A stretch of 63,935 nucleotides of DNA, the filler included, from Rhizaria sp. SCN 62-66 (lineage: Eukaryota), in the NCBI GenBank assembly GCA_001724265.1. It is 5 parts of 5 records of this genome, joined end to end, with 100 filler letters (N's around TTAATTAATTAA, not from the genome) between each part and the next. Parts side by side here need not be neighbours in the genome. Positions count along the whole stretch, not along the records: positions 11,894 to 23,110 come from MEDY01000681.1; 4 more parts are not named here. One strand, written 5' to 3'. Below are positions 3,235-55,202 of this stretch, piece by piece; position 1 is the stretch's first letter; every line of letters starts with the position of its first letter. The notes beneath the pieces were generated by a model. It had not been told where the DNA came from. It did not search any database and saw only the letters and a program-made list of their open reading frames with translations. Made by a program: the position numbers and the translations under genes.

Positions 3235-6200
3235 ATGGGCCGATTCTGGGCCATTATCCTTCTTTGCTTGGTAGCTCAAGCATTCGCAACGGGAGTTGCG
3301 GAGCGTACGTTCTCTTTCCCAGCTTTCCTTGTCCTTTTCTATCTCTCCGTTGATGTCACATCCGCCGCTGACGCGATCCTGATGCACTGTGCCCTGCCCT
3401 TGCCCTTCGTTCTCCTTCGCCCCTCTCTCACTTCATCCAACTCACCACTCCACTTGCCTTCTCTCCCTCGTCTCTGTCACCCGCCTTTGCTCTTGTCACC
3501 TCCTGTACTCCGCACGCGTCTCACTCTCTCTCCCCCGTCCGCAGCTGAGCGCCCGGCGGAGACCACGTCGGTCACGACGACGCCGTCCCCAGCGGCCGCC
3601 GTGCCCGCCGCCCCCACCACAGCTGCTCCTGCCGCTGCCGCCGCCGCCGCTGCGAGCATCCCGATCGCGGGCGGCGGCCAGTCCCTGGCGCCCGGCGCGA
3701 GCCCGATCGGCTGGCGCCGCGGCGACGTGTGCTACAAGTGGGAGCGTCTGCGCTCTACGGCCCGCGCCGTGCAGCCGCTCGCGCTCGACATGCAGTCCCG
3801 CGCCAACATCCACACCTGGACCTGGGCCGACACCACCTCCGCAGCAAACAGCTCGACCGCCAACAGCAACGCCAACGCGAACAAGGTTGAGTCGGAGTTT
3901 GTGTTCGCGTGGGGCGGATGCGCGCCAGCCCACGGCGCGACGCGCTCGCTCGAGCACTGCTCGCCTGCTCTCGCGCGCTTCCACCCCTACACGCAGACGT
4001 GGGCGCCCGTCGATCTGGTCGACGCCGCCGTGCCCGAGCTTCCCGCGGCCAACTTCCGCGCCGAGGCCGCCGCGGGCGCGTTCCACGCCGAGTCCAACAC
4101 CTACTACCTCTTCGGCGGTAAGCGCGTTCCCTCCGCGGCCGACATCGCCGCGTCGGAGCACGCACAGGCCGCGCTGTCCAACGTGCTGTCGGCCATCGTC
4201 CCGGCGCCCTCGGCTGCGTCCTCCGCGCGCTACGCCGTGAAGCCTGTGCCGACCCGCGGCGCAGTCCCGCCCGCGCTCTCTGGCGCGCGCCTCGCTCCGG
4301 CCGGCTCTCACGCGCTCGTGCTCTTCGGCGGCTTCGCCGTCGACGGCGGGCTCAACGACGACATCTACGTGCTGCCCCTGCGCGGGCCCGCGGCATTCGA
4401 GTGGCGCAAGCTCCCGCGCCCCGTGCCCGCCCCCGTGTCGGGCGTCGACATCGACTCGATGGCCGTCGTCACCCCGGCCGGCCGCGTCGGCCACGTCTTC
4501 ACCACGCTCCCCGCGCTGCCCGCGGACCGCGCCGACGCCGCCGACGCGGACGCCGCGGACCGCACGCACCGCTTCCTGCTCCACGGCGGCTCCGACGGCG
4601 TCGCAACGCTGTTCGACGCCTGGGAGCTTCTGCTTACCGGTGACGTCGCAGGCCACCTGGGTCCCGCCAAGCCCGCCGGCGACAGCGCCGCGCCGCTCGC
4701 CACGTGGCGCCGCCTGACGCTGGGCACCGCGCCGGGCGCCACGGCCCCTGCGGCGCGCGCGCACCACTCGATCGCCTTCACTTCTTTCGCAGAGTTCGGC
4801 CCGTTCCGCGCACTCGTCTTCGGCGGCTGCGACGCCGCGCGCGACGCCTGCTTCGACGACGTCGCACTGCTCGACACCATCAACTGGCGTTGGGAGGTGC
4901 TCCCGGCGTCCCTCGCCGCCTCGGCCTACCCGCCCAGCACCAACTCCGCCGCCGCATCGGCCGCGACGGTGATCGGCGATGAGGCGTCTCTGCGCGGCGC
5001 CGGCGCGCTCGCCGCCGCAGCCGTCCGCGCGGCGCAGCGCCGCTCTCCGTCGGCGCGCCGCGGCGTCGCTATGGTGCCGACGCACGGCGGCGAGAAGGTC
5101 CTCTTCCTGGGCGGCTGCGCGCTCGCCGACTGCGCGGGCCCTGCCGAGGGCGCCGGCGCCGTCTTCTCGCTTGACCTCGACGCGCTGTGCCCGGCCTCGT
5201 GCGTCGCCGGCAACGGCGTCTTCGTCGAGGAGGCCCAGGTCGCCGCGCGCCTCCAAGGCGCCCCCGCGCGTCGCGTCGCGCTCACCGTCGGCCACGGCGG
5301 CGCTGGAGCCTCCGGCGCCGCGGCCACCACGCAGGTCTTCGTCGACATGGCTGAAGAGGAGGCCGTAGGTGCGCACTGCGCGTGCGGCGCGATGGCTCAC
5401 GGCAAGTTTTGTCAGCAGCTGCTCGACTGCCCCGCCGGGTGCTCGGGCCACGGCGACTGCGTGGGGCCCGCGGGCAAGAAGTTCTGCCAGTGCCGCGAGG
5501 GCTTCTGGGGCGCCGACTGCGCGACGCCGCAGTGCCGCCGCAACTGCTCCGGCCGCGGTGTGTGCCGCGCGGGGCCCAATCCGCTGTATGCGACCCTCAC
5601 GCCCTTTTCCTTCGCGTCCATGCTCATGGGCTCCGAGACCGGGCTCGTGGTGCTGGCGCCCGGCGTCAACACCAGCGCAGTCACCGGCAACGCCGTCGGC
5701 AACGGCACGCTCGCGGGCGCCAACGGCACCGCGGCCAACGGCACGGCGGGCGCCAACGGTACGGCCGCTGTGGCGGCGTCTGGCTCCGGCACGACCCCGG
5801 CCGCGCTGCAGGTGCTGCTGGGCCTGTCTGACCAGGCCAAGGCGCGCGCCAAGGAGATCTGGTTCAAGTCGCAGTCGCACTGCGAATGCTCGCAGGGCTT
5901 CTTCGGCAAGGAGTGCGCGCTCACCAAGGACGCCGCGCTCGAGACCGTGGGCGTGACGTGCCCCAACGGCTGCTCGGGCCACGGCCTGTGCGACCCCGTG
6001 GCCGGTACCTGCCAGTGCCAGGCTGGCTTCTCCGGGCTCGCCTGTAACATCGAGTGCCCGTCCGACTGCTCGGGCCACGGCGTGTGCTCGCACGACGGCG
6101 TGTGCAAGTGTGAGCCCGGCTTCGTCGGCCCGGACTGCTCAGTGCGTGAGTGCCTCGTCGACTGCTCCGGCAACGGCGAGTGCGACGACATCTCTGGCCA

Positions 6201-9200
6201 GTGTAAGTGCACGCCGGGCTGGGGTGGCGTCTTCTGCCAGCTCCGCACCGCGTGCTCGGGCCACGGCAAGTTCGTCAACGGCAAATGCGTCTGCGACGCC
6301 GGCTACGGCAACGCCGAGTGCTCGCAGCAGGTCACCTGCGCTGGCGGCTGCTCTGACCGCGGCACGTGTGTCGCCGTCGAGCCGCTCAAGCAGGAGTCGC
6401 GTCTGCTCGCCAAGCCTGTCGCCGACGCGGCCTCGCTAGCGCTGCTCGAGGAGGACCCGTCGGCCGCGCTGGTCGAAGTCCCCGACGGGACGGGCGAGGA
6501 CGGGCGTGTGCTGACCAAGCTGCAGCCGCTGGCCGCCGTGGTGGACCCGTCGGTGCCGATCGCGGGCCAGTGCCAGTGCGCGCGCGGCTGGCGCGGCGCG
6601 CAGTGCGCCCAGCGTGCGTGCGCGCACAAGTGCCGCCATGGCGAGTGCGACGACCTGGGTCAGTGCAAGTGCTGGCCCGGCCACACGGGCGTCGACTGCT
6701 CCATCCCTGTGCCGTGCCCCAACAACTGCACGTCGTCGACGTCGGCCAATGCCGCGGGCGCCAAGCTCGCCCCGCACGGCGTGTGCCAGGTCTCGGGCGT
6801 CTGCCTCTGCAACAAGGGCTGGTCGGGCACTGACTGCGCCACGGCCGACTGCCCCAACGGCTGCTCCGGCAAGGGCTCCTGCGCCGACGGACACTGCTAC
6901 TGCGACAAGGGCTTTTCGGGGCTTGACTGCTCCGTCGCCTGCCCCAAGGGCTGCTCGGGTCACGGCGAGTGCGTCACGGGCGGCAAGTGCGCCTGTTTCC
7001 CGGGCTACGAGGGCGCCGACTGCACGCTGCTTTCGCAGTGCCCGCGCTCTCTGACGGGCGGCGAGTGCTCCGGCCGCGGCTTCTGCGACCGCGCGCGCAA
7101 GACGTGTCTCTGCGAGCCCGGCTTCACGGGCGCCGACTGCAGCAAAACGGAGGGCGAGTGCGACGCCGACACGTGCGGCCACCATGGCACGTGCCGCAAC
7201 GGACAGTGCTTCTGCGACCTGGGCTACTCCGGCAAGCGGTGCGAGGTCGCCAACCAGTGCGTCGACGCGTGCAACGCGCGCGGTTTCTGCCAGCACGGCC
7301 GCTGCCACTGCTACCCGGGTTACGAGGGCGACTCGTGCGAGACGCCCGTGGCCGATACCACGTGCCCCAGCGGGTGCAACAAGAACGGCTTCTGCATGCA
7401 CGGCCGCTGCTTCTGCCAGGAGGGCTTCACGGGCCCCGACTGCGCCACGCCCGCCGGCTTCTGCGCCAACAACACGTGCTCCGGCAACGGCGTGTGCCGC
7501 CATGGCAAGTGCCACTGTCAGCCGGGCGCGTCGGGCGTGCGCTGCGAGCTAGGCGGCTGCCGCAAGTGCGAGGCCGGCCGCGGCATCTGCATCCTCGGCC
7601 AGTGCCACTGCCTGCCCGGCTTCACGGGGCCCGACTGCGCACAGGAGCTCACATGTCCCAACTCGTGCTTCGGCAAGGGCGTCTGCATTCTCGGCGCCTG
7701 CGCCTGCTTGCCCGGCTACTCGGGCCACGACTGCTCCTCTGCGACGGGCGCCCAACCTGCGCCGACTCCGACCGCCGTCACGACGGGCCCCGCGCTCACG
7801 TGCCCCAACGGATGCAACGGCAAGGGCGTGTGCCGCGACGGCAAGTGCTACTGCGTTGGCGGCTTCGAGGGCCTCGACTGCGGCATCGAGCGCGAGGCCG
7901 CGTGCCCGATGAACTGCGGCGGCACCCCGCCGCTGTACAATCAGCGCGGCACGTGCCGCTACGGCAAGTGCTGGTGCAAGCCCGGGTTCGAGGGCGTGGC
8001 GTGCGAGCAGGAGCTCTTTTGCTCCGACAAGTGCACGCAGAACGGCGTCTGCCACTACGGCGAGTGCCACTGCTTGCCCGGCTTCACCGGCAAGGACTGC
8101 GACGTGGTGCAGATGATCAACTCGACCATCTCGGCCTGGGCCGCCCCCGCCGTCGCCGCGGGCGCCGCCATCGCCGTCTCGGACGCCACGGCTTCGGCTG
8201 TCGCCAAGACTACGGCGTCGCCTGTGTCGACGTTCCTTGACACGTCTACCACGGTGCGCCCCGCGCTCACCCCGGCCGCCGTCTTTGCGCTCCTCGCCAC
8301 GTCCACCACAAATACCTCCACCACCACGGCCCCTGCGCCTGCGACTGCTTCGGCCGCCCACGCGAACGCGAATGCGAACGCCACTGCGAGCAACGCCACG
8401 AGCAGCAACGGTGCGGTGCTGACGTCTCCGTCCGCGTCGCCCACCGCGTCGACGGCCAACGTGACGTCGTCGCCGCTGACGGCCGAGCTGGCCGTGAAGC
8501 CGCTCTTCAACAACACTGAAGTTGCAAGCCTCGTCGCTGCGCTCAACGCCTCGGCCTACTCGCCCACGCACGACTCTGAGCAGCCCATCGGGTACTCGGC
8601 GACGGGCTTCGCGCTGCCCGAGACGCTCTCGGCGCTGGTCAAGCCCTGCGGCGGCGAGTCGCACGGCTGCGGTCAGCACGGGCTGTGCGTCGAGACGGCC
8701 GGACAGATGCAGTGCGTGTGCGAGCCTGGCTACACGGGACCGGACTGCTCGCTCGTCACTGGCGGCCAGCTCTGGCACCGCTGCCCGCAGGCCTGCAACA
8801 AGCGCGGGCTGTGTCTTCTGGGCCGTTGCTACTGCGATCTGGGCTTTCAGGGTCCCTCGTGCGAGGAGAAGATCGACATCCCGTGCCCAAACAACTGCTC
8901 CGGCTACGGCCAGTGCTCGTTCGGCAAGTGCTTCTGCCAGCCCGGCTTCGCGGGTCCCGCCTGCGACAAGATCATCCCCTGCTCCAAGCTCTGCGGCGCG
9001 CACGGCATCTGCTTCAAGTCCCAGTGTGTGTGCGCCAAGGGCTACGCTGGTGAGTTCTGCCAGCTGCCCTCGGTGCGCCTCGGCGCCGGCCCGTCGCTAC
9101 CCGCCGCGCCTATCGGCGACGCCTTCAACGACACGTCGCTCTTCCACCACTTTCTCGAGACGGGCGCGCGCGCCGCGACCGATGACGAAGGCCTCGCCGT

Positions 9201-9879
9201 CCTCGTCGAAGCCGACGCCGACGCCGACGCTGACGGCACCGCCGCGGCCCACGCCGACGCCGACGCCGACGCCGAGACAGCTGCGCTGTCGCTGCTCGAG
9301 ACTGCGTCGACCGCGGCTGCCGTGCAGGCCGCGGCGTCGCTGGCGCGTCTCCCTGTGTCGATCACGGTCGCGCCCGACGAGGCGTCCTCGGCCGCCTGCA
9401 CGGACTCGTGCGGCGCACACGGCCGCTGCATCGCGGGCCGCTGCTTCTGCGAGGCCGGCTTCGCGGGCGCGGCGTGCTCGGTGCGCGTCGACGAGACGAG
9501 CGCGCCCGCACTGCTGCTGCACAACGCCTACAACACGGCACAGCTCTCGTCCACGGGCGCCGACGCGACCGTGGGCTTGGGAGCGAGCGTGGCCGCTCTG
9601 GCCGAGCGCTGGCGCCGCCGCGTGTCGGGTGCGCTGGGCGCCACGGCCACGCTCGTGCCTCTGGGCGCGGACTGGACGCTGTCACCGCTCACGCTCGCCG
9701 CCGCCGCGCTCGCTGCGGGCGCGCTGGTCAACTATCTCATGCAACGCCTCGCTGAGAGCAAGACGGCGCGCCTCGAGGCCGCCGCGCGCGACACGCACAT
9801 GATGCCGCTGCTGCGCCCCGCCACCTCCTCCGCTGCCGCCGCTGCTGCTGCTGCGGCTGCTGTGGCTGAGGGCAAGTAA
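3235..9879 (+). CDS. Large cell-surface protein: signal peptide, Kelch-like repeats, about 30 tenascin-type EGF repeats, C-terminal hydrophobic anchor
   Basis: MGRFWAIILLCLVAQAFA signal peptide; Kelch-like LFGG/LHGG/VFGG/FLGG motifs; many CPxxCSGHGxC...CxCxxGFxGxDC repeats; C-terminal LTLAAAALAAGALVNYLM. Probable in-frame 240-nt intron 3305-3544 (GTACGT...pyrimidine tract...CAG). Ends TAA. Confidence 0.85.
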   Translation: MGRFWAIILLCLVAQAFATGVAERTFSFPAFLVLFYLSVDVTSAADAILMHCALPLPFVLLRPSLTSSNSPLHLPSLPRLCHPPLLLSPPVLRTRLTLSPPSAAERPAETTSVTTTPSPAAAVPAAPTTAAPAAAAAAAASIPIAGGGQSLAPGASPIGWRRGDVCYKWERLRSTARAVQPLALDMQSRANIHTWTWADTTSAANSSTANSNANANKVESEFVFAWGGCAPAHGATRSLEHCSPALARFHPYTQTWAPVDLVDAAVPELPAANFRAEAAAGAFHAESNTYYLFGGKRVPSAADIAASEHAQAALSNVLSAIVPAPSAASSARYAVKPVPTRGAVPPALSGARLAPAGSHALVLFGGFAVDGGLNDDIYVLPLRGPAAFEWRKLPRPVPAPVSGVDIDSMAVVTPAGRVGHVFTTLPALPADRADAADADAADRTHRFLLHGGSDGVATLFDAWELLLTGDVAGHLGPAKPAGDSAAPLATWRRLTLGTAPGATAPAARAHHSIAFTSFAEFGPFRALVFGGCDAARDACFDDVALLDTINWRWEVLPASLAASAYPPSTNSAAASAATVIGDEASLRGAGALAAAAVRAAQRRSPSARRGVAMVPTHGGEKVLFLGGCALADCAGPAEGAGAVFSLDLDALCPASCVAGNGVFVEEAQVAARLQGAPARRVALTVGHGGAGASGAAATTQVFVDMAEEEAVGAHCACGAMAHGKFCQQLLDCPAGCSGHGDCVGPAGKKFCQCREGFWGADCATPQCRRNCSGRGVCRAGPNPLYATLTPFSFASMLMGSETGLVVLAPGVNTSAVTGNAVGNGTLAGANGTAANGTAGANGTAAVAASGSGTTPAALQVLLGLSDQAKARAKEIWFKSQSHCECSQGFFGKECALTKDAALETVGVTCPNGCSGHGLCDPVAGTCQCQAGFSGLACNIECPSDCSGHGVCSHDGVCKCEPGFVGPDCSVRECLVDCSGNGECDDISGQCKCTPGWGGVFCQLRTACSGHGKFVNGKCVCDAGYGNAECSQQVTCAGGCSDRGTCVAVEPLKQESRLLAKPVADAASLALLEEDPSAALVEVPDGTGEDGRVLTKLQPLAAVVDPSVPIAGQCQCARGWRGAQCAQRACAHKCRHGECDDLGQCKCWPGHTGVDCSIPVPCPNNCTSSTSANAAGAKLAPHGVCQVSGVCLCNKGWSGTDCATADCPNGCSGKGSCADGHCYCDKGFSGLDCSVACPKGCSGHGECVTGGKCACFPGYEGADCTLLSQCPRSLTGGECSGRGFCDRARKTCLCEPGFTGADCSKTEGECDADTCGHHGTCRNGQCFCDLGYSGKRCEVANQCVDACNARGFCQHGRCHCYPGYEGDSCETPVADTTCPSGCNKNGFCMHGRCFCQEGFTGPDCATPAGFCANNTCSGNGVCRHGKCHCQPGASGVRCELGGCRKCEAGRGICILGQCHCLPGFTGPDCAQELTCPNSCFGKGVCILGACACLPGYSGHDCSSATGAQPAPTPTAVTTGPALTCPNGCNGKGVCRDGKCYCVGGFEGLDCGIEREAACPMNCGGTPPLYNQRGTCRYGKCWCKPGFEGVACEQELFCSDKCTQNGVCHYGECHCLPGFTGKDCDVVQMINSTISAWAAPAVAAGAAIAVSDATASAVAKTTASPVSTFLDTSTTVRPALTPAAVFALLATSTTNTSTTTAPAPATASAAHANANANATASNATSSNGAVLTSPSASPTASTANVTSSPLTAELAVKPLFNNTEVASLVAALNASAYSPTHDSEQPIGYSATGFALPETLSALVKPCGGESHGCGQHGLCVETAGQMQCVCEPGYTGPDCSLVTGGQLWHRCPQACNKRGLCLLGRCYCDLGFQGPSCEEKIDIPCPNNCSGYGQCSFGKCFCQPGFAGPACDKIIPCSKLCGAHGICFKSQCVCAKGYAGEFCQLPSVRLGAGPSLPAAPIGDAFNDTSLFHHFLETGARAATDDEGLAVLVEADADADADGTAAAHADADADAETAALSLLETASTAAAVQAAASLARLPVSITVAPDEASSAACTDSCGAHGRCIAGRCFCEAGFAGAACSVRVDETSAPALLLHNAYNTAQLSSTGADATVGLGASVAALAERWRRRVSGALGATATLVPLGADWTLSPLTLAAAALAAGALVNYLMQRLAESKTARLEAAARDTHMMPLLRPATSSAAAAAAAAAAVAEGK

Positions 9880-11703: not shown

Positions 11704-11793
11704 TAGGGTTATTAGGGTTATTAGGGTTATTAGGGTTATTAGGGTTATTAGGGTTATTAGGGTTATTAGGGTTATTAGGGTTATTAGGGTTAT
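11704..11793 (+). repeat. Telomeric repeat (TTATTAGGG)n, 10 perfect units at contig end
   Basis: TAGGGTTAT x10 runs up to the contig end, with the G-rich strand 5'->3' towards the end as expected for a chromosome terminus. Confidence 0.9.
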
Positions 11794-11893
11794 NNNNNNN
11801 NNNNNNNNNNNNNNNNNNNNNNNNNNNNNNNNNNNNNTTAATTAATTAANNNNNNNNNNNNNNNNNNNNNNNNNNNNNNNNNNNNNNNNNNNN
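11794..11893. other. Artificial contig linker (N run + TTAATTAATTAA + N run)
   Basis: Identical 100-nt spacer with stops in all six frames occurs four times in the window. Confidence 0.98.
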
Positions 11894-11922
11894 TAGCGCG
11901 GACGCAAAACTCACTTGCGAGC

Positions 11923-14900
11923 ATGACTGGCGCCACCGATGCGCCAAGTATCACACGTCTCGGTCGGCTCCTAGCGTCACGGCCCGTCTGGCCTTTCTCA
12001 GGAGGCGTTGACCTCGATGACAGTGACCCAAAAGAGCAAGCGATCCATAATACGCTTGCCAACACACCCTGGGTTGCTGCACGTGCTGCGTTTGAGGCAG
12101 CGACCACCGATGCGACTGCTGGGTTAGTACCGCGTGAGGTCACGTGCGAAGCTGATGTGCCGCTTGCCGCCTTGCTCTCTGCATCTAACGGCGACGGCAT
12201 TGTTGCTCAACTTGGCACGGTTGAGCTGTGCGGCGTGCGTTTCACGTGCACTGTGCGCCTCGGCTGCGGTTGCGGGGCTTCTCCATTGCTTTTGTCTCAT
12301 CAGGCACAACTGGAATCGAGTGAAGATGGAGCCGTTACGGACGCTTCTATTGAAGGCAAACCGTCCAGTGCAAACGCAGACGCAGGTTCAAGTCTTACAT
12401 CATCCGCTACAGCTTTGCCTCTGTGCAAATGTGCGCTTGTCGGTGAGGTCACGGCGACTATTGTGTCAACGAGTCTTGCTGCAAGCTACGACGCCTGCAA
12501 AGCACGTGCTAGGGCCGTTACCAAGCTTATTGATAGTCGTGACAGCAATGGCACTGAAGATGGCATTAATAATGACAACAAAGCGAATGATACTGACAAG
12601 AGCATCACTGCGACCGCTGAGTTAGGTAACTGTAGCAACGTTGAGAGTGGCACTGATTGTGAGTTTGGTACTGTACGTGCAACTTTTACAGTGCTGCGCA
12701 ATAATGACGGCAAAAGCAGCGGAGGAGCTCAATCTGACGATAACAACACCGACAACTCTGGTCTTGTTGCTTCAATGCTGGTGACAGATATCATGAAGCG
12801 CACAGCTGCTGTTGTCCTTGCACAGTTGACAGACGCGCAGGCAGTAGTGACAGCGTTTATGGATGCAAAATGGTGTGTACGTGCTTCTGTGGCGTTTCCA
12901 GATGTTTTCCATGAAAAACGCGCGATGCATCTGCTGGAGGAAGTTGTTCCGGTGGACTGGATTTTGAGGACTGAAAGTGCTGCTGCAGAGGCAGCTGCAA
13001 AGGCTGTTGCAAAGGCTGCTGCAAAGGCTGCCGCCAATGCCGCTGCAAAAGCTGCAGCAAAGGCTGCTTTAAAAGCTGCTGCTGTAAAGGCTGCTGATGA
13101 CTTCGCCGAAAGGACAGCTTTAGAAGCGGCCTTAGAGGCGCCATGGAGGTCAGTTGTACAGTCTGGTAATTGGGAGGCTGCATTTGATTCACACATTACT
13201 TGCAGCCTAAATAAATGTGGGTACCCTGGTAAGTACATCCAGTCTGCCACTTATGGAGTCCCACCTCCTGCGGCACTTACGCTACTGCAAACAAGGGCTC
13301 GCGAGCGCATCCTGGTATATGCACTACAGGAGCTGGAGGAAGAGCACATGACTTCAGACATGGTTATGAAATTTGGTTTTTGTCATGAAAGCAACACAGG
13401 CAACGACAGGTATCGCATGGTGATTCGTCTTAACGATAAGCTTTTTCCTCACAACGCAGCAAACTTCCGCACTGCTGCTCAAAGTAAAGCATTGGGCAGC
13501 TACTTCCACCAACGTTTTATCCCTTCAGGCCTGTCTCCGGGCACGCGTCTGCCGTTTGTTACATTGCATAATCGAAATCACGGCGGCTGCTCCTGTGCCT
13601 AGTTATGCATCACACTTCCTGAGACCGACATTGTTTACGGTGAGTACACGGCGCCCGCTGCCAGTGAAAACGTGACATATCCAGTCGGCACAGTGCTGAT
13701 GTATCCTCGAGAAGTTGTGCCTTGTGAGAAAATTTATGCTCATGGGGTGCGGGATTTATTGTGGTTTATTGTGTTCAAGCCTTGCGCTGCCACTTTGCTT
13801 CGCGGCGCGGTGCCTGTCGGGCGTGTCATGTCGTGTGTGAAGTTGGTGAGCGGGGAGGCTGCGTCAACAAGCGATAATAGTCTGCAATCCTTTGACGCAA
13901 CTGTGTTGCAGTTCTTTAAGACATATGCCCGCGCGAAGCCAGATGAAACGTGCGCAAGTGACAAATCGTACATGCAGTTCGGTTCGTTCAGGCCTTGGGC
14001 TAATATTGCGAAATGGCAGACAATTGCACAGTCTGGTAATTGGGAGGCCGCATTTGATTCACACATTGCTTGCAGCCTAGAGGAATGTGGTTACCCTCGC
14101 CGACAGGCGGAAGTGGCGTCATATGAGTACATTCCGTCTCCCGCTTATATGAGGGAATATGGAGTCCCACCTCCTGCGGCACTCACGCTACTGCAAACAA
14201 AGGCTCGCGAGCGCATCCTGGCATATGGTCTGCAGACGATGAGGAAATATAACATGACTTATGATGTGGTAATGAAATTTGTTTTGTGCCATGAAAGCAA
14301 CACTGGCAAGGACATGTTAATCCGAATTCGTCTTGACGACAAGCAGTTCCTTCATAACGCCGCACACTTCCGCACTGCAGCTCAAAGTGAGGCGTTGGGC
14401 AGCTACTTCCACCAATGTTTCGTTCCTTCAGGCCAATCCCCGGGCACGCGTCTGCCGTTTGTCACACTGCATCACCGAGATCACGGCTCCTCCTGTGCCC
14501 AGTCACCCATCACACTTCCTGATACCGACATTGTTTACGGTGAGTACACGGCGCCCGCTGCCAGTGAAAACGTGACATATCCAGTCGGCACAGTACTAAT
14601 GTACCCTCGCGAAGTTGTGCCTCGGAAGAAAACGAGTGTTTGGGGGACGTGTGATTCGCCGTGGTTTATTGTGTTCAAGCCTTGCGCTGCCACTTTGCTT
14701 CGCGGCGCGGTGCCTGTCGGGCGTGTGATGTCGTGTGTGAGGGGGGAAACTGCGTCAACAAGCAATAAGAGTGCGCATCCCTTTGATGCAAACGTGTTGC
14801 AGTCCTTTGAAGCTAACGCCAGTCCACTGCCAGATCAACAATGCAAATCTAACGGATGGTACATGTTGTTCGATTCGTTTAGGCCTCATTCCTTACACTT

Positions 14901-15492
14901 TGAGATTTTCGTTAAGACTCTTGCCAACAAGACGATCACCCTTGTTGTTGATCACTCCGACACCATTGAGACTGTTAAGTAGAAGATCCAGGACGCGGAG
15001 GGCATTCCCCCGGACCAGCAGCGCCTTATCTTCCAGGGCAAGCAGCTCGATGATGGCCGCACTCTTGCCGACTACAGCGTTCGAAAAGAAGATACTCTGC
15101 ATTTTATCCTCCGCCTGCGTGGTTCAAGTTTACGGTATAAGAACAATGTCAATGACATTACTGAAGAGGAAATCGAGGCATTCGAGTCACTCACACCTAA
15201 ACGATACCGATACAATTATAACGGCCCTGATACAGGTCCATATTGGGGTTTTATCGCTGAAGAAGCTCACGAGAAATTCCCGGAGTTATGCATTTATAAT
15301 ACTGATGGACAACCAGAAGCCTTTTTCTATGACAGTACTAACGCTTTGCTTGCGGCAAGTAATAAGAAACTTCGTGGGCGAGTGTCTGATCTTGAAAGTA
15401 AGAACAAAGACCAGAGTTTACGAATGGTAGAACTTGAAGCGCGACTGGCTCGGCTTGAAGCTCTCTGTGCAAGCTTGCACGGTCTCAATTAA
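11923..15492 (+). CDS. Chimeric ~1189-aa protein if TAG=Gln: unknown N-terminus, AAK repeat, two cyclophilin-like repeats, ubiquitin (G76S), peptidase S74/ICA chaperone with coiled coil; possibly 5'-partial
   Basis: ORFs 11923-13602, 13672-14982 and 14983-15492 share one frame broken only by TAG 13600-13602 and TAG 14980-14982. Ends TAA, followed by AATAAA. The frame is open back to the contig start. Confidence 0.75.
12981..13095 (+). repeat. Imperfect coding minisatellite (GCTGCAAAG-like) encoding AAAK repeats
   Basis: [39 protein letters not shown]. Confidence 0.8.
13151..14890 (+). repeat. Intragenic tandem duplication, two copies of ~870-900 bp (~13151-14000 and ~14021-14890)
   Basis: 13624-13694 is identical to 14524-14594. 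[27 protein letters not shown] and [25 protein letters not shown] each occur twice. Confidence 0.95.
14899..15126 (+). other. Ubiquitin domain within the chimeric ORF, with TAG at residue 28 and Ser at residue 76
   Basis: [27 protein letters not shown][TAG][48 protein letters not shown] is colinear with ubiquitin; K48 and K63 retained. Confidence 0.95.
15124..15492 (+). other. Peptidase S74 / intramolecular chaperone auto-processing (ICA) domain plus trimeric coiled coil
   Basis: SSLRYKNNV (S-D-x-R-x-K-like Ser/Lys dyad), [23 protein letters not shown], then LEARLARLE. Confidence 0.85.
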
Positions 15493-16065
15493 CTATAAAT
15501 AAAGTGTATCCTCAGTACAGAGCTACCAATACAGATATTATTAGTTCCACCACCTGAGTGATTAGGCATAATGATACGTCCAACTGATGTATTATAACTA
15601 GTAAGCAAACGAGTTTGTAGTAGCAGCTGACCACGAATGACAATCCCCACATGAAACACTTAAGTTTTGACGATTAACTCCAGTTCCCGTTGATATTATT
15701 GCACGCTTACTAGAGACAACTGTAAGACCAGTTAAGTTATAAGTCGCACCAAGAATCATAAAATAGTTCGATTCAACATCTATCGTATTTTCAATGCGCT
15801 GCCCGATGTTATATCTTCAGTGTTGAAGATACCCATTGTTGTGGTGAATCGCTGAAAAGGCTTTTCGACAGGTAGTGCTGGTCGGGTAATATTTGAGCTT
15901 GCACCGAATAGATATTAATATTCGTGCAACACTGCTGCCTTGCTACGTTGTTTCTTAAGACTTGCTTTACGAGGCATATGTGAATATATTGTAGGCGCAA
16001 TCGATTATTTATATGATTATTCATTTATCCGCACTTAGAGGATGCGGCAGGCCGTAGTCGACTGC

Positions 16066-17259
16066 TCAGCACCAGCGCCGCGCTTCGACGCCGCAATCGA
16101 AAATCTTCCTGCAGTTGTCCCATGCGAGCTTGGGAAGCCCAGAGAGAACCTTATTGGCTCCCCGAAAGAGCGTACCGAAGATGCTGCCGCCAATCGTGTT
16201 ACTCGACGTGCGAATAACGTGACTGCCAACCACCATGAGAGCGGTGCGGTCCTCAGAGGAAAGCCCGAGTGCATCAGTTACGGACACAATGCCATTGGAT
16301 CGGAACTCTAGATACAAATCGGTCTCAACAGCAGCCCAAAACTAGTAGTCAGCAAATCTGCCTGTGTCGCCCAGGTGCTGAGCCTTGGCGGACACGTATA
16401 GCGGAAGATTCGAAATAGTTGAAATAATGTAATGGTCGCCAAGAATGAGATCGTTCTGGAGATTAAAGCAAACAACGTAACCCGCCTTCTTTGCAATAGA
16501 CCAAGGTAGAGAGTACCCATTGCTAGCATTCATCTCATACAGGCTGAATTCAGACATACTGTTATTTGCATCACGCCCACCAATATTGATCTTCACGTCA
16601 GACAGAGGAGCATATGTGGACGGAGAAGTGCAGATCTTACGCGCGGTCATTGCTGTGCCGTCAGTTGCACCAGAGTAATGAGTATTGCGAGCACAAACCG
16701 CAGCAACAAAGATGCGCTTAGGGACAGCCTGAAGAGTAATTGGGGTCGACTTTACGTCATGGCGCTTTGGCTCATTAGCACCCGCGGCTGCGGCTCTGAG
16801 ACGCTCCTTCTTTGACCAATGAATATGCTGCTTCATCGTATGAGCATGAGGGAATGGTAGCCCGGTTTTGGAGTCGGTCAGAGTCTTCGTAACATCATCG
16901 GCAGGCTTGATGTAGCGGACGTACATACCAGGCTCGCTCGCGAAAGTTACGTTGTCGCGGCATATCGGACCATAACCAATCGCGTACCCCGTTAGCGTTA
17001 GAAGGTAATTGAAAAGGCGATTCCACTGAGAGTTAAACGTAATGTTGACGCAAGGCTGGCGTAGGTTATCAATGCCTAGACCAGTGGCAGAGCTGGCAAA
17101 GACTGACCAAGGAAGAGCCATGTAACCGTCGATATCGTAAGTTACATCAAGATTGACTTCGGCAGCCGCCGCCACATCGGTAGTGTGAACTACCACTGAA
17201 GCGCAAGTGCCAAACTTCGAATGCGCGTCAGCAGGGCTGCCAAATGGAGATGCCATCAT
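16066..17259 (-). CDS. Virophage (Sputnik-type) major capsid protein homologue, N-terminally truncated; ~397 aa reading TAG 16344-16342 as Gln
   Basis: Motif order matches virophage MCP as I recall it: GIDNLRQPCVNITFNSQWNRLF, PGMYVRYIKP, ITLQAVPKRIFV, SLYEMNASNGYSLPWS, GYVVCFNLQNDLILGD. After the TAG, the in-frame ORF 16066-16317 gives TIGG|SIFGTLFRGANKVL (diglycine site plus amphipathic tail). Confidence 0.75.
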
Positions 17260-17290
17260 TGCGATGTTAACTTTTATTATAAGTCAAAAA

Positions 17291-17316
17291 TGAGAACAGT
17301 CAATTGACTGTTCTCA
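17291..17316. repeat. Perfect 26-bp palindrome
   Basis: TGAGAACAGTCAA/TTGACTGTTCTCA is its own reverse complement. Confidence 0.9.
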
Positions 17317-17620
17317 ATGTAAATACAACTTTTAGACGAAAAAAAATACCAGAAGTTTAAAACAACAACAAATTACAAATATAAATAACAAAGACATTGA
17401 TATATGCAGAATATGTCTTTCTTAAATGTTTAGTTATGAGCATATGTGACTCAGTTCTAGTTTTGCCCATGATAGCATGCAACCAGTGTAAGGTTAGAAA
17501 GATTACTAGTAGCAAAACTTAAGCTTGAATCAAAAAAGAGACGCTGTATTCATATTTTATTTATCATATAAGGTTTGTTACTCAGATTTTATCAATCAAT
17601 CCTCACAGGGTTGTTTTCTT

Positions 17621-20600
17621 TTACTGCAGTTGCGCGAGTGCGGCCATCTGCTCCGCAGCGTCACACGCCTTGCCGACGACGCGCTCGATGTGTTCGCGCT
17701 CCCACACGGGGACGTGGTTGCATGGCGAGTCCATGAGCACGCGCACCGTGGCACGCACTTCGCTCGTGCTCGCGCCGGCGTCGCTCATGAGCAGCCCGGC
17801 CTCGAGCAGCACAGGCAGCAGCCACTGGCTCATGACGCTGCCGGCGGCCTGCTCCTCGGCCGTCAGCGCGCAGTCGGCCGCGGTGACGATGGGCGTCGCT
17901 CTCATCGCGCTCGCGTGCGCCTCGTGCTGCGCGGCCAGGCGCGACATCACGGCGGCCTCGGAACGCTCCAGCTCCTTGTTGGTCGTCACGCCCGTCGCCA
18001 TGCGCGGCCGCGGCGCCGGCACGATCACCGTGCGCTGCTGGCGCCACAGCGCCTCGGCGGCGCGCACCTGCGGCTTGGACTGCACGGCCATGAGCACAGC
18101 CGCGCGGGCTGGGTCACGCAGCCCCCACTGGCGCACCTCCTCAGTGACCGCAAGCACCCACAGCGGCGGCTCGCGGAAGATAGGATGTTCGCGGAAGAGC
18201 TGCTGCTGCGCCAGCGTCTCGGACGGCACGTCGCTCCAGGAGGACGACATGGCCACCGACACGGGGTCGATGACGTACCGCGCCGCGGACCGCGCGACGA
18301 CGGCGGCGGCGGCGGACGCGGCCTCGGCTGCCGTCGCCGCCACGGCTTCGGCGTGTGCGCGCGCGAGGTTGCTCTCCTTCTCCTTGCGCAGGCGGTCGAG
18401 CCGCTCCGCTTCATCGCGCTCGCGGTCCTTGCGCCCGAAGAAGATGCCGCCGGACTTCTTCTTCGCCGGCTGCGCGCCCGCCGGCAGCGTCGGCGCCGCA
18501 ATGCCCACCGACGGCACGCCGGCAGCTGCCGCGACGGCGTTGGCCAGCGCGGCGGCCGCGGCGGCCGCGGCGGCAGTCGTGCCCGCGGGCGCGGCCGTGA
18601 CCAGCGCCGACGCCTTGACGGTGGCCAGGAAGGCTGCGGCGTCCTCCGAGATGACGCGGCGCACCGCGCGCGGCGGGTCGTAGCGGATCGCCGGGCGGAA
18701 CGTCACGAACTCCTGCGCCGCGGCCCGCAGCGCGATCGCCGCCGGCCAGTCGCGCGCGGCCAGCGCGTGGTCCAGCAGCACCAGCGACAGGTCCAGCAGG
18801 GACAGAAACGGCAGCGGCGCGAGGCGCAGCAGGCGCGGGACCTGCGGCTGCAGCAGGCCGGCCGACGGCTGCGGCGCGCTGCCGTTGCCGCTGCCGCCGC
18901 CGTTGCCGTTGGAGGACGCGTTGCTGACGCTGGGCTGTAGCGCATGGCCGGTGGCGTCGGTCGCGCCAGGCGCGGCGAGCGCCGCTGCCGCCGCGGCCGC
19001 GGCTGCAGCCTGCGACTGCTGGAAGAGCTCGAGGCACGGCGCGTGACAGCACGCGGGCGGCGTGGCGGTGGCAACCTGCGCGGCGGCGGCGCGCGCCCCG
19101 GCCAGCGCGCGCGCGGCGGCACGGTGCTGCGCCATGAGGTCGACGCGCGGCGCCACGGGGCCCAGCGGCGCAGTCTCGGCCGTGACGCCTGCGGCGAGGT
19201 CGGCCGACGAGTACACCACGTGCATGCGGTCGCTGTGCCGGTACCAGACGCCGCTGCTGCCGCTGCCGGCGCTCGAGACGGGCGTGGAGCCGCCCGACTG
19301 CGACTGGTGGCTCCACGCGCCGAAGCACAGGCTGAGCTCGGGCGACAGCGGCGGCGCGGCGCCCTGGCCGGCCCACGGCAGCGCGAACGCCCCGCCCGCA
19401 GCGGCTGCGGCGGCCGCGGCGCCGGCGAGCCCTGGGTAGGGCGCGGCGGGCGCGTAGGACGTCATGTACGCGTAGGGCGGCAGCGCGGCCGACTGCGACA
19501 CGGCGGCCGTGGGCGACAGGGTGGACCAGAGCGGCAGCAGCGTCGCCTCGGTCTCGCACGGCGCCAGCGCTCTCGCCAGGCCCGACGTTGAGTGCGCCGC
19601 GGCGTGCGCGGCTGCCGCGGCCGAGGACGTGGGGATAAAGGAAAAGCCGTACGGGCCCGGCAAGCGGTGCAGTCCGCCCACCGCGATCGAGTCCAGCAGC
19701 AGCGGCAGCGCACCGAAGCCAGCGCTCGCGCCCACGCCCGCGTTGGCGGCCGCAGCGGCGGCGGCGTTGGTGGTGGAGTAGGATAGAGCGTGCGACAGCG
19801 TGGTCGAGTGCCCGGCGCCGGCGGCTGAAAGGCCGCTGTGGCTGCGGCTCCAGACGTCGGCGCCGACGCCCGTGACGGTGCCGACCAGCGCGGGCGCCAT
19901 GAAGGCGTCGAGGCTGGGCCGCGTGTAGAGCGCCACGCCCGCGGTTGCCGCGGCAGCGGCGGCGCGCAGCACTGGCGGCAGGTGGCCCGTGCCCTGGCCC
20001 GCGAAGGCCGCGTCGGGCGGCGCCAGAAGCGGGAACGCGGAGGCCGCGGCCAGTGGCGCGGGCGAGAGCAGCGGCGGCGCCGCGGGCAGCCACGCCGGCA
20101 GCGAGCGTGCAAGGTGCGAGTGCGACAGCTTGACCACCTGCGTCGACGACGGCGGCAGCGGCGCCAGCGCGTACGCGCAGCCGGGCGTATGCGGCACACC
20201 GCTGTTGTTGTTAGCCTGCTGTCCCGAGAGCGCCTGCGCGAGGAAGGCGGGGCAGCCGAGCCAGCCCGCGGCGGGGTCAGGCCCCAGCGTGGCACAGTGC
20301 GCGCACGCGAAGCCGTGGTACTCCCAGTTCGCCACTGTGCCCGCCACGCCCACAGCGTCATCACCAGCGCCAGGGCCGGCGCCAGGGAATAGGGCGGGCA
20401 GCGGCAGGCAGCGCGCAGTGGAGGCCGCAAGCGACGCGGCGGCGGCGGCGCGCGCCTCGGCCGGGGCCGCGGGGTCAAACAGACAACCGTTCCACTTGCC
20501 ACCATAACCGCCGCCGCCGCTGTTGCTACCGCTGAGCAGCGCGGACGCGGTGACGGCACCATGCGCGGCGGCTGAGGTGGGCCGGCAGGGCGGGAAGCGC

Positions 20601-22795
20601 GGCGCGGCGGCGCGCGCGAGCGCGGCTTGCACAGCCTCCTCAGCCTGCCGCGCGACGCCCGCGATCGAGTGCGTGGCCAAGATGGGGTACGCGAACGGCA
20701 GGAACTGCGTGCTGGCCAGCGCCAGCGGCTGCAGCAGCACGTCCACGGCGCGCGCGCGCAGCGTGGGAGACGCAAAGGCGGCGCGTGCGAAGGCCATGTC
20801 GCTGTCTGACAGCGGGCGGTTGAGGAACACGCGCGAGACGAGCGCGTCGGCACGCTCCGTCTCTTCTTGCAGCTGGATCGCGCGGCGCTGCGCCTCGCGG
20901 GCCGCGTCGCGCTCGGCCACGGCTGCGCTGGGCGGCGCAGCAGCGGTCGCGGCTGCAGAGGCGGATGCGGCGGCGGCGGCGGGCGCGGGGGCGGGGGGCG
21001 CGGGCGCGGCGGCGGCGGCGACTGCAGCGGAGGCGGCGGCCGAGACCACGGGCCCCATGCCCGACGCCGCCGCGGCCGCGGAGATGGCGGCGGCGCGCTG
21101 CGCAAGCGTCATGGTGGCCGCAGAGCTGGGCGCGGCAGCCGTGAGTGAAAGCGGGCCGCCGCGCGGCGGGATCGGCGGCAGGCCGTTGCTGCCGCTGCCG
21201 TGCGCGCCGGCGGCGGCCGCGGCGCCCGCCGAGGCGAGCAGCGAGGGCGAGATGACGTCGCTGGCGACGAGCCCCAGCCCGGCGATGTGGCTGTGCGCGG
21301 GCCCGGCCTCGCTCTGCGAGTGCGAGCGCAAGCGCGTGGCGCTGGCGCTGCGGCTGGGCACCTGGCTGGGCGGCTGCGAGGGCGCGCGCGAGGACGCCGC
21401 ACTGGGCTGCACGCTGCCCGCCGCGCTCGGCTGCAGCGCGTCGCCGCCCGTTTGGCTTTGCGTGCGCGTGTGGCCCAGCGCCGGGCTGGAGCCCGAGGCG
21501 GTGGAGAGCGTCACGGACGCCATCAGGGACGCGGGTTGCGCGCACTCGAGGCAGAACGGGCACTCGCCCGCCGCGGCCGCAGCAGCGTCGCTCTCGTCGC
21601 TGTTGTCGTCGGAATCTGAGTCGGAGTGGGAGCCCGAGGCGGAGGAGAACGAGGCCGAGGCTCTGGACGAGCATTCCGAGGACGACGATGATGACGACGA
21701 CGGCGATGAGGACGATGACGCCGCGGCGGCGGCGCGGCGGCCGTTGCGGCGCGCCATGGCGACGAGCCCCGCCGACGAGGCCGCGGCGGCCGTGGCCGGC
21801 ACGCCCGCTGCCGAGAGCGCGATGCGCAGCGCAAGCGCGCGGCCGCGGTGGCGGCGGCGGCGGCGGTCGCGGCGGCGCGTGCGTGCGCTGAGCGCGTCGG
21901 ACCACTCCACGCCTGCGTCGCTGCAGTCGCCGCCGCATTTGGCAGCAGCAGCAGCAGCGGCGGCGGCAGCGGCAGCGGATGACGAGCCGGGGACGGCGGC
22001 GCCGGAGCGCGCGGTGAAGGGCGACACGGCCGGCGCGAGCGTCAGCGTGAGCGCGCGCGCCGGCGGGCTGCGCGGCCGGGCGCCGACCGCGCTGACACCC
22101 GGCTTGGCGCCGCGGCGGGCGCGCGCCTTGGCCTCGGCCTCGACGCGCGCGGCGTCAGAGCCGGCCGAGGAAGAGTCGCTCCAGTCCACGTCGCTGAGCG
22201 CGGCGTCGGACGACAGCGACGACTGCGAGTCGGCGTCGTCGCGGTGCGCGGGCGCCAGGCCCAGCCGCACGGCGAGCCCCGTCCACGCGCGCTCCTCGAC
22301 GCGACCCAGCCGCGCGTGCGTCGCCGCGTTAGTGTGCGCCGGGGGCCCGTTCACAACCAACGCGCCGACGCCGTTGCCGTTGCCGGCGCTGGTGTTAGAG
22401 CTGGCGTGCGCATGCGCGTGCGCGTTGGCGGCCGCGCAGCCGGGGCAGGGGTGCGTGATGGCGGCGACAAGCGCGACGTCCGCGGCGGCCACGGCGGCGT
22501 CTAACATCGACTCAGCCTGCGCGCGCACGCCGGACGCCGACGCCGTCGCCAGCGTCGCGGCCGCGGCAGCCGCGGCGGTCGTGCCCCCGCTCATGCCCCG
22601 GCGGCAGCCGCTGCTGTGCGGCGCGGCGCCGGAGGCGCGGCCAGACCTCTTGGCGCCCTTGCCGCTGGCGCGGCTGCCGGTGCTGCCGGTGCTACCGGTT
22701 GAGAAGCGAGCGCTGCGGCGGCCGCCGCGGCGGCGGCCCGTCTCGCTCGCGCTGCCCGCGCTGGCGTTGCTGAAGCTGCGGCGGCGGCCACTCTT

Positions 22796-22832
<37 letters not shown>

Positions 22833-23110
22833 GCGCTGTTGGCGTGGTTGTCGTTGTCGTCGCCAGATGCAGTGTCGTCGTCGTTGTCGTCGTCGCTGCT
22901 CTGGTAGCCGTCCTTGTCGCCGCCCGCGCCGCCGCTGCCGCCGACGCCGCCGTCATGCTGGCCGCCGCCGATAGGCTTGAGCGCACGGCCCTTGCCCTCG
23001 GCGTCGCCGTCGTCGTCGGCCTTAGGGACCTCGGCGCCCTCGGCGATGTTGCCGCTGCCCCCACTCGCGCGCGCGCCCGCACTCGCGCCAGCGGCCCCCG
23101 CGCGCCCGCC
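17621..23110 (-). CDS. Large Ala-rich protein, 5'-partial; C-terminal region possibly SBF2/DENN-associated
   Basis: The frame of ORF 17621-22594 stays open to the contig edge with host-like codon usage. LFREHPIFREPPLWVLAVTEEV resembles the HPxW...FWE motif of SBF2-type domains (weak). Ends TAA. Confidence 0.6.
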
Positions 23111-23210
23111 NNNNNNNNNNNNNNNNNNNNNNNNNNNNNNNNNNNNNNNNNNNNTTAATTAATTAANNNNNNNNNNNNNNNNNNNNNNNNNNNNNNNNNN
23201 NNNNNNNNNN
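23111..23210. other. Artificial contig linker
   Basis: Same N-TTAATTAATTAA-N spacer. Confidence 0.98.
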
Positions 23211-27785: not shown

Positions 27786-28784
27786 ATGGCTTCTGCGGCA
27801 GCAATTATTTCTACCGCCAAGGCGGCTGCCGCCGGTACGGCGCCAGCCCATGTGAGCGGCTTTGCCTCCCTGGCCACGGTTGACTGGGCCGCGGACCTGC
27901 AGGTGCTACTGCGCACGTACTCGGAGTACTGGTACGTCACGCTCGGCTGCTGCGCGGGCTGGCTCGCCGTCCACTTCCTCTTCGCGCTTATCTTCTCCCG
28001 CACCAACGTCGTGGCCTCGATCGTCGGTCACCTGCGCGACGCCGACCTAGCCAAGGGTCGCACCGCCAAGCCCGACAAGAAGTACTTCTACCGCGCGCGC
28101 TACGACCTCTACTCCAAGGCCACCGCCTTCGTGCACGCCGTGCTGACGTCGTACTTCGCCATCCAGGCCTTCGCCTCCTTTAACCCCATTGACGATCTTG
28201 CCGTGCCGGTTATCTACACCAATGTGCCGTACTACAACATTATTACGCAGATCTCCGCTGGGTACTTCTTGTACGACTTCCTCATCGCCGTGTACGACTT
28301 CGACCTGCCCTACATCGCGCACGGCCTCTTCTCCGCCGTCATCTACGCCCACGCTGTGTACCCGTTCTGCGCGCAGATCGGCGTTATCTACCTCATCTAC
28401 GAGGTCTCGACCATCTTCGTCCACATCCGCTGGTTCCTCATCAACACCGGCCGCGCCAAGTCGCTCTTCTTCGACGTCTCGCAGTACGGCTTCATCGTCT
28501 GCTTCCTCCTCATCCGCATGGGTTTCGGCGTCTTCTACTCGTTTCTCTATTTCCAGCCCATGCTGTGGCAGCTCTTCCTGGCCATCCCTGTCGTCCCGCA
28601 CTCGCGCATCGCCGTCGCGCTTTTCGCGCTGTCTAACCTCACACTCAACGGGCTCAACATCATGTGGACCAAGATGATCATCGACACCGTGCGCCGCGCC
28701 GCGAAGGCCTCCAAGAAGGGCAAGGACGGCAAGGCCGCCGCGGTCAAGCAGGCCTCCACGGCCGCCGTCAAGAAGATCGACTAA
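27786..28784 (+). CDS. TLC (TRAM/LAG1/CLN8) domain membrane protein, TMEM56/TLCD4-like
   Basis: Multiple TM segments with AFVHA, SAGYFLYD, IAHG, YEVSTIFVHIRWFL, FLLIR and LNIMW motifs. Ends TAA. Confidence 0.9.
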   Translation: MASAAAIISTAKAAAAGTAPAHVSGFASLATVDWAADLQVLLRTYSEYWYVTLGCCAGWLAVHFLFALIFSRTNVVASIVGHLRDADLAKGRTAKPDKKYFYRARYDLYSKATAFVHAVLTSYFAIQAFASFNPIDDLAVPVIYTNVPYYNIITQISAGYFLYDFLIAVYDFDLPYIAHGLFSAVIYAHAVYPFCAQIGVIYLIYEVSTIFVHIRWFLINTGRAKSLFFDVSQYGFIVCFLLIRMGFGVFYSFLYFQPMLWQLFLAIPVVPHSRIAVALFALSNLTLNGLNIMWTKMIIDTVRRAAKASKKGKDGKAAAVKQASTAAVKKID

Positions 28785-40118: not shown

Positions 40119-40150
<32 letters not shown>

Positions 40151-45141: not shown

Positions 45142-45241
45142 NNNNNNNNNNNNNNNNNNNNNNNNNNNNNNNNNNNNNNNNNNNNTTAATTAATTAANNN
45201 NNNNNNNNNNNNNNNNNNNNNNNNNNNNNNNNNNNNNNNNN
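45142..45241. other. Artificial contig linker
   Basis: Same spacer. Confidence 0.98.
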
Positions 45242-55102: not shown

Positions 55103-55202
55103 NNNNNNNNNNNNNNNNNNNNNNNNNNNNNNNNNNNNNNNNNNNNTTAATTAATTAANNNNNNNNNNNNNNNNNNNNNNNNNNNNNNNNNNNNNNNNNN
55201 NN
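55103..55202. other. Artificial contig linker
   Basis: Same spacer. Confidence 0.98.

Follow-up and report, generated by a model that had tools for sequence, protein, structure and literature searches.

The window, by which we mean the whole stretch of DNA that was analysed (63,935 nucleotides in five contigs of the assembly GCA_001724265.1 of Rhizaria sp. SCN 62-66), carries on one of its contigs (MEDY01000681.1, positions 11894-23110) a reading frame in which a ubiquitin domain is fused in register to a Peptidase_S74 domain, here also called ICA, so that the predicted catalytic Ser of the latter stands at the place of ubiquitin Gly76. ICA modules are known as folding and release devices of trimeric beta-helical fibres, with one known case among transcription factors, MYRF. 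We favour, with moderate confidence, the reading that the fusion forms the 3' end of a long, probably fibre-type, gene of a polinton-like-virus or virophage-like element, that this gene once worked, and that the fusion has been inherited. The copy in the window is most simply read as a pseudogene within a decaying integrated element of this kind, as two of its codons have changed from CAG to TAG and its neighbours are damaged too (a TAG in a capsid-like gene; a frameshift and a shortening in a second fibre gene, gene B).

Translated on the plus strand, positions 14899-15492 give 197 codons with one internal TAG, in which ubiquitin passes directly into the S74 domain and this into a helical tail (Table 1). 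The initial annotation, made from the sequence without database searches, had proposed such a fusion, with residue 76 of ubiquitin as the S74 Ser and with K48 and K63 kept, and had named the absence of an S74 profile match as a result that would refute it. The Pfam matches and an alignment to solved ubiquitin bear it out on all of these points: PF00240 (ubiquitin) matches residues 3-74 (E 4.3e-26, 90.9 bits, cut-off 25.4), and PF13884 (Peptidase_S74) matches residues 76-130 (E 5e-9, 36.8 bits, cut-off 22; positions 1-56 of the 58 in the profile). In the alignment 56 of the 76 positions (74%) are the same as in canonical ubiquitin, and K6, K11, K27, K29, K48, K63, L8, I44, H68, R72, R74 and G75 are all retained; K33 is lost, V70 has become Ile and G76 has become Ser. 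The recognition surface (L8, I44 and H68, with Ile for V70) and the chain lysines K48 and K63 are thereby present. Ubiquitin activation and conjugation require Gly76, and of the Gly75-Gly76 C-terminus needed for conjugation the window domain has G75, followed by Ser. Judged by its sequence, it is a ubiquitin fold of ubiquitin descent and not a conjugatable ubiquitin.

The Ser at residue 76 falls on position 1 of the Pfam S74 profile. Together with Lys81, its partner in the S-x-x-R-x-K pair, it is invariant in S74 alignments of 5, 21 and 40 sequences, and among the 40 aligned sequences G117 and E121 are invariant as well. The S74 family profile matches solved ICA-bearing chains in the PDB (6f45, 8hqz, 8jov, 7dc3 and 3gud), although a single-sequence phmmer search against the PDB gave no ICA match. 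An AlphaFold2 monomer model built from the 40-sequence alignment has predicted local distance difference test (pLDDT) values above 90 over the S74 core and the helix at residues 144-196 (blocks of 95-98 in the helix); confidence is lower in the ubiquitin half, where the alignment contains no ubiquitin homologues. The best Foldseek match of this model is 7dc3, the ICA of MyRF (E 1.6e-4, template modelling (TM) score on the target 0.56), and ubiquitin structures come next. Compared by blastn with L049, a metagenome contig that carries related fibre genes, the helix has an in-frame insertion of 21 nt, corresponding to 7 residues, or one heptad.

The junction is real. As copies of the region we used contigs of four public sequencing runs (X1-X4) that align on 11894-19000 with a likeness of at least 85%. 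Contigs without a single difference run across 15123/15124 in X1 (15033-15970), X2 (15033-15848) and X3 (15033-15855); they reach 91 bases to the left of the junction and also span the tail-to-tail break after the stop codon. The window itself may derive from one of these three runs, and the tables of X1 and X3 are nearly identical. In X4, which belongs to another study, a contig of 2015 bases matches 14985-15492 (508 bases with 41 mismatches, 92% identical), and a 1-nt deletion and a 1-nt insertion lie 9 nt apart, so that the frame is kept. Since this copy has diverged by about 8% and has the same junction, the fusion is inherited; the match covers neither the first 28 ubiquitin codons nor the flanks, so that only the part from 14985 to the stop codon is shown to be shared. 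The initial annotation had named a mis-assembly at about 15123 as a way in which its claim might fail, and the exact contigs of X1-X3 and the 92% contig of X4 answer it. Between 344 and 1251 contigs per run fall on the stretch at 85-99% likeness, and such numbers, in the hundreds for every run, indicate a multi-copy family.

The segment 14899-15492 is not a gene by itself, as had been supposed at first: it lacks a start codon, and its frame extends about 1000 codons upstream of ubiquitin to the contig edge, so that the gene has at least 1189 codons. Over these 1189 codons the frame holds 2 internal stops, both TAG, against 33-99 stops in each of the other five frames. With the frame open so far upstream, cleavage would free a large protein ending in ubiquitin(1-75). 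The predicted release of an LRLRG-ended protein therefore needs amendment, in that its end would indeed be ubiquitin(1-75), whereas the product would be a large protein and not free ubiquitin. The two tandem modules within the upstream part, compared with one another, show a ratio of nonsynonymous to synonymous divergence (dN/dS) of 0.58 at a dS of 0.30, and every indel between them is a multiple of 3. Pfam gave no match in the upstream part of the long open reading frame (ORF), with the modules searched at E up to 1, and ESM Atlas gave no usable match to the modules; a single-sequence AlphaFold2 model of module 2 was unusable (pLDDT 34). A cyclophilin-like motif that we suspected by eye in the tandem modules was dropped, as none of these three gave it support. 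Some run contigs carry joins between modules (e.g., 14739 to 13860 in X2), which suggests that the number of modules may vary between copies.

The surroundings of the fusion are virus-like. From 11894 to 17260 the contig codes at a GC content of third codon positions (GC3) of ~0.5; an AT-rich gap follows, and then a host ORF. An exact X2 contig (17017-18570, 0 differences) links the element to this host ORF across the change in composition. Gene B lies tail-to-tail with the ubiquitin-S74 ORF; its frame is broken by a 7-nt insertion and its last ~218 codons are missing. The capsid-like gene weakly matches the virophage family MCP_V20_C (E 0.002, 17.9 bits, under the cut-off of 27) and has an ESM Atlas feature score of 0.97 to viral clusters, in which a minority of the members (10-18%) carry Capsid_NCLDV or Capsid_N; no relative of it was found in IMG/VR. 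Ten of the putative host ORFs on the five contigs have a GC3 of 0.62-0.91, mostly 0.8-0.9, and the other four contigs of the window showed no further virus-like ORFs. Our reading is that a polinton-like-virus or virophage-like element has integrated into the genome of a GC-rich eukaryote and is decaying there, and that the stretch belongs to it. L049 (1-3857) is a contig of 44% GC with a 686-aa repeat-rich fibre ORF, a 298-aa S74 fibre gene and a third ORF; a related protein, P0166 (579 aa), comprises the first two of these fibre ORFs in one, so that they are fused or split in different variants. Polinton-like viruses are described, in the portion of PMC12220804 consulted, as carrying multi-domain proteins of more than 1000 aa and, in their phage-like fibres, chaperone-of-endosialidase domains.

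Table 1. Features of the fusion gene and its contig, and the spacers of the window (positions of the whole stretch)
Feature	Positions	Strand	Remarks
Upstream part of the long ORF: N-terminal region with an Ala/Lys-rich stretch, then two tandem modules	11896-14898	+	Same frame as the fusion; open to the 5' end of the contig at 11894
Tandem modules, ~290 aa each	~13138-13995 and ~14008-14886	+	No known family
In-frame TAG no. 1 (codon 560 of the long ORF)	13600-13602	+	Aligns with CAG (Gln) in paralogous module 2
Ubiquitin domain, residues 1-75	14899-15123	+	PF00240; position 1 is Phe, no start codon of its own; ends in LRLRG
In-frame TAG no. 2 (ubiquitin codon 28)	14980-14982	+	CAG in other copies
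Peptidase_S74/ICA core	15124-15288	+	PF13884; starts with Ser76 (predicted nucleophile); Lys81 (predicted general base); G-F-I-A-E-E motif
Long C-terminal helix (predicted coiled coil) and TAA stop (15490-15492)	15328-15492	+	
Gene B, 5' fragment (codons 1-80) of a second fibre gene	15514-15774	-	tblastn with P0005, 81-83%; blastn with L049, 80%
Capsid-like gene, 397 codons	16066-17259	-	One in-frame TAG at 16342-16344; weak Pfam match, ESM Atlas
Flanking host ORF, 1657 aa	17621-22594	-	Same contig; GC 0.77, GC3 0.91
Spacers between contigs	11794-11893, 23111-23210, 45142-45241, 55103-55202		44 N + TTAATTAATTAA + 44 N (six-frame stop linkers)

Several observations weigh against the reading as a once-working, inherited fibre-type gene. 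The gene is known here from DNA alone. Only one diverged copy, that of X4, is shown to share the junction, over a match bounded by 14985 and the stop codon. The capsid call consists of a sub-threshold Pfam match and a language-model score, and the 5.7 kb of virus-like sequence contain no packaging ATPase, maturation protease, integrase or polymerase; the contig breaks off at 11894, and the rest of the element is out of view. The closest S74 relative, P0160 (79% identity in the S74 core, among the best 150 of 1813 relatives), is called as a stand-alone protein and has no ubiquitin tail. The residues before the catalytic Ser also differ from those of the relatives: in a survey of 151 relatives, 126 of which contained the motif (130 instances), G-Q-L-G-T-x-x precedes the Ser (P3 Thr in 81 of the 130, P2 Val in 56), where the window has I-L-R-L-R-G, and a Gly at P1 occurs in none of the 130 (S 63, T 25, V 18, A 15, P 5, other 4). 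Finally, in a phage endosialidase an upstream stalk residue participates in cleavage (according to sections of PMC8326128), so that cleavage beside a globular ubiquitin is not assured.

P0160 itself (entered together with P0007) is an ORF of 111 aa on 3 contigs, which begins with Met-Ser two residues before the catalytic Ser, and it may be a free-standing ICA or another broken copy.

The rival that survives best, which we regard as unlikely although it deserves appreciable weight, is that rearrangement produced the fusion incidentally and that it never was a working gene: a break within a fibre gene of L049 type would have inverted or displaced its ICA-helix cassette, which came to lie by chance behind an ORF that ended in ubiquitin and was then copied passively while the element multiplied in the genome. 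Composition points in this direction, as GC3 drops at the junction from 0.55-0.63 to 0.37, a value like that of gene B of L049. By segment, GC3 is 0.54 in the tandem modules, 0.63 in ubiquitin (47/75 codons), 0.53 in the capsid-like gene, 0.37 in S74 plus helix (45/122) and 0.385 in gene B of L049; the difference has a Fisher p of 7e-4 for ubiquitin against S74 plus tail, and p = 2e-4 when modules plus ubiquitin are set against S74 plus helix. A drop exactly at the junction suggests a recombinant origin, with the ICA-helix cassette coming from an L049-like lineage, and the helix of the cassette shares an identical stretch of 17 residues with gene B of L049. The initial annotation had also seen a change of codon style at this place; the change stands, but its description of ubiquitin as host-like does not, the value for ubiquitin being near that of the upstream ORF (0.54). 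The break accordingly divides a moderate-GC viral ORF that includes ubiquitin from an L049-like cassette, and not host from virus; at 74% identity to canonical ubiquitin, a recent capture from the host is unlikely.

The same rival draws on the neighbourhood, since 20 nt past the stop codon the opposite strand carries the 5' 80 codons of an L049-like gene B from which precisely the middle and the ICA are missing, and on the absent pre-site motif, the P1 Gly without parallel among the relatives and the stop codons of the window copy. It is opposed by the joint itself, which keeps the frame and falls exactly on two domain boundaries, that behind G75 of ubiquitin and that at position 1 of the ICA profile. 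Past the joint, 122 codons are open, all invariant ICA residues are kept, and the 7-aa insertion in the helix preserves the heptads. Moreover, identity to the L049-type gene B amounts to 81-83% in the gene B fragment but to only 53% in the S74 core, so that the cassette and the fragment are unlikely to be halves of one gene, and the copy diverged by ~8% retains both the junction and the frame. From the comparison of these genes, ICA cassettes look exchangeable in this virus group, with the exchange point here at the predicted scissile bond. If the gene were a dead recombinant, it would mean that ICA cassettes swap between small eukaryotic viruses with the breakpoint exactly at that bond.

If, as we prefer, the gene once worked as a fibre-type gene, the product of an intact copy would consist of an N-terminal region, the two tandem 290-aa modules, ubiquitin(1-75), the ICA core and the long helix, in this order. 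The C-terminal helix and the ICA core would first bring three chains together into a trimer. The Ser76/Lys81 pair would then cut the Gly75-Ser76 bond and the ICA would depart, leaving a mature trimer whose C-terminal (distal) tip is ubiquitin(1-75) with LRLRG at its end. This tip could not be conjugated, yet it would show the I44/L8/H68 patch together with K48 and K63 to ubiquitin binders that the host or a helper giant virus provides. What is related in parts of PMC8326128 agrees with the first two steps in other ICA proteins: a Ser-Lys catalytic dyad (S911/K916 in endoNF, S587/K592 in MyRF), cleavage that depends on the trimer, trimerisation driven by the C-terminal helix and, for MyRF, cleavage independent of its upstream fold.

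Autocleavage, which the initial annotation inferred, is less certain than stated there: Ser76 and Lys81 are intact, whereas the pre-site motif is absent and the P1 Gly found here has no counterpart in the 130 instances. As the pre-site segment lies outside the Pfam model, membership in S74 is unaffected and it is the cleavage claim that is weakened; we put the chance that an intact copy would cleave itself at somewhat better than even. That the gene was real while its ICA did not cleave and served trimerisation only, with ubiquitin remaining internal between the repeat modules and the ICA, seems improbable to us. The missing pre-site segment with its unparalleled P1 Gly would fit such an arrangement, as would the reliance of endosialidase cleavage on a folded upstream stalk (in the part of PMC8326128 that treats it), but Ser76 and Lys81, which are required for cleavage alone, have both been retained, MyRF cleaves regardless of its upstream fold (same source, likewise in part), and the exact register with the ubiquitin C-terminus is hard to account for if the bond was never cut.

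The two in-frame TAG codons of the window copy might also be taken as sense codons. All other copies in the four runs have C at position 14980 (depth 42.3/42.3 in 4 contigs of X1, 289.2/304.3 in 5 contigs of X2, 42.3/42.3 in 4 contigs of X3 and 172.2/172.2 in 9 contigs of X4) and so read CAG, as expected from the earlier suggestion that the TAG in ubiquitin stands at a Gln position. With CAG in the other copies and in module 2, both TAGs look like private C-to-T changes, and their derivation from CAG makes a recoding of TAG as Gln unlikely. We consider it very improbable that the organism or its virus reads TAG as Gln and that the gene is intact. In favour of this, TAG accounts for each of the three internal stops of the virus-like ORFs, and none of eight host ORFs free of internal TAG ends in TAG (6 TAA, 2 TGA, although GC3 reaches 0.91), which is odd, but in a sample of stop codons too small to weigh. 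However, these eight ORFs (17621-22594, 27786-28784, 29318-34417, 35065-41490, 42053-43468, 46085-53941, 57802-60297 and 63233-63934; 9,990 codons) use CAG 274 times and in-frame TAG not once, the other copies at 14980 and the paralogous module at the first site have CAG, and no recoding could mend the frameshift and truncation of gene B. An assembly chimera at ~15123 is practically negligible, for although chimeras do arise where, as in the window, short contigs of a multi-copy family are strung together, separately built contigs without differences cover 15033-15848 or more in X1, X2 and X3, and a diverged contig from another study (X4) covers 14985-15492.

The ubiquitin+S74 architecture seems to be unrecorded, as the initial annotation had supposed, in searches that covered the protein sets of eukaryotes and giant viruses only unsystematically. 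A word-index search with the junction region in a set of 5.8 billion clusters yielded no second such protein among its 2 matches of 108-345 aa, 4 of 346-2000 aa and 60 of 30-107 aa; of these 60 short matches, the 59 that were new all lacked an S74 motif behind RLRG. An exhaustive HMMER search with S74 plus helix returned 1813 matches at E <=1e-3; none of 151 proteins tested, which included the best 150 of these 1813, matched the window ubiquitin (best E 0.5). Likewise, tblastn with the window ubiquitin over the 121 loci listed (48 S74 loci of IMG/VR, the remainder from at least 73 in metagenomes) gave a best E of 1.3. A DNA pattern for T-L-H-x-x-L-R-L-R-G-S-x-x-R-x-K was met nowhere in IMG/VR and once in prokaryote genomes, out of frame and by chance, and three matches in phage records all began at residue 76. 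IMG/VR held no relatives of P0005, P0004 or P0160. In the literature no paper was found that pairs 'Peptidase_S74' with 'ubiquitin', and broader searches brought nothing on such a fusion, supplementary tables being outside their scope; the main text of PMC12220804, as far as it was covered, is without the word ubiquitin, and the supplementary domain tables of that paper could hold such an architecture.

It is distinctly doubtful that live relatives of the window gene make a trimeric virion fibre with a ubiquitin tip, produced without deubiquitinase or ubiquitin-activating enzyme (E1) by a self-cleaving ICA whose nucleophile sits at the place of Gly76. If they do, a trimer of LRLRG-ended ubiquitin would engage, at entry or assembly, either helper-giant-virus proteins or ubiquitin receptors of the host, be these endocytic or part of the ESCRT, autophagy or proteasome machinery. 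Bolder still, in a model of ICA chemistry the Ser attacks the preceding carbonyl, here that of Gly75, to give an ester; if Ser76 does so, resolution of the ester by a lysine in place of water could attach the fibre covalently to a target without an enzyme. To our knowledge, ubiquitin is freed from fusions only by deubiquitinases. A working gene would represent a way to expose a ubiquitin C-terminus independently of host enzymes and the first ubiquitin-tipped surface protein of a virus, and it would supply a ready-made self-cleaving ubiquitin fusion. Roles of the ubiquitin part as a degron, a decoy for deubiquitinases or a scaffold, as first suggested, are speculation.

The contigs of the window are separate, with no physical linkage between what lies on the two sides of a spacer. 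All five bear long, GC-rich putative host ORFs; two ORFs match known families. The first of these (3301-9876, plus strand, 2192 aa) has many EGF repeats of teneurin/tenascin type, the second (46085-53938, plus strand, 2618 aa) a calpain protease domain; both are uninterrupted, at ~70% GC. At 11704-11793, up to the end of the first contig, stand ten perfect copies of the 9-bp TAGGGTTAT, which looks like an unusual telomere repeat.

Among known systems, the fusion gene is most readily set beside the fibres and tailspikes of phages and polinton-like viruses that carry Peptidase_S74; we compared the K1F endosialidase, the L-shaped fibre of T5 (8hqz), the long tail fibre of S16 (6f45) and phi29 gp12 (3gud). 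The C-terminal position of the module, the S-x-x-R-x-K with invariant Ser and Lys, the G-x-I-A-E-E motif, the long terminal helix, the long multi-domain passenger and an adjoining capsid or capsid-like gene are common to both. In those fibres a trimeric beta-helical stalk with G-Q-L-G-T leads up to the scissile bond; here the flexible tail of a globular ubiquitin does so, with the P1 Gly seen in none of the 130 instances. Closest to the ICA-helix cassette (53-79%) and to gene B (81-83%) are fibre genes, those of the metagenome contig L049 and of the proteins P0005, P0006, P0160 and P0166, none of which has ubiquitin; their ICA follows a Gly/Asn-rich fibre body ending in G-Q-I-G-T-V-A (in P0160, it forms the stand-alone ORF). 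A second likeness is to MYRF and MrfA (7dc3), eukaryotic membrane transcription factors in which an ICA outside the classic fibres trimerises and releases its passenger, and which gave the best fold match (at 18% sequence identity). In MYRF a beta-helical stalk precedes the site and a transmembrane segment follows the ICA, whereas the window protein would have no such stalk and ends after the helix.

The third comparison is with polyubiquitin, ubiquitin-eL40, ubiquitin-eS31 and the ubiquitin genes of viruses, where, as here, a true ubiquitin stands head-to-tail with another protein and separation is predicted at its C-terminus. In these natural fusions host deubiquitinases cut after Gly76 and give a conjugatable ubiquitin. 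In the window gene, by contrast, the place of Gly76 is taken by the nucleophile of a self-cleaving domain, the predicted cut falls after Gly75, and ubiquitin is found at the end of a passenger of ~1000 aa.

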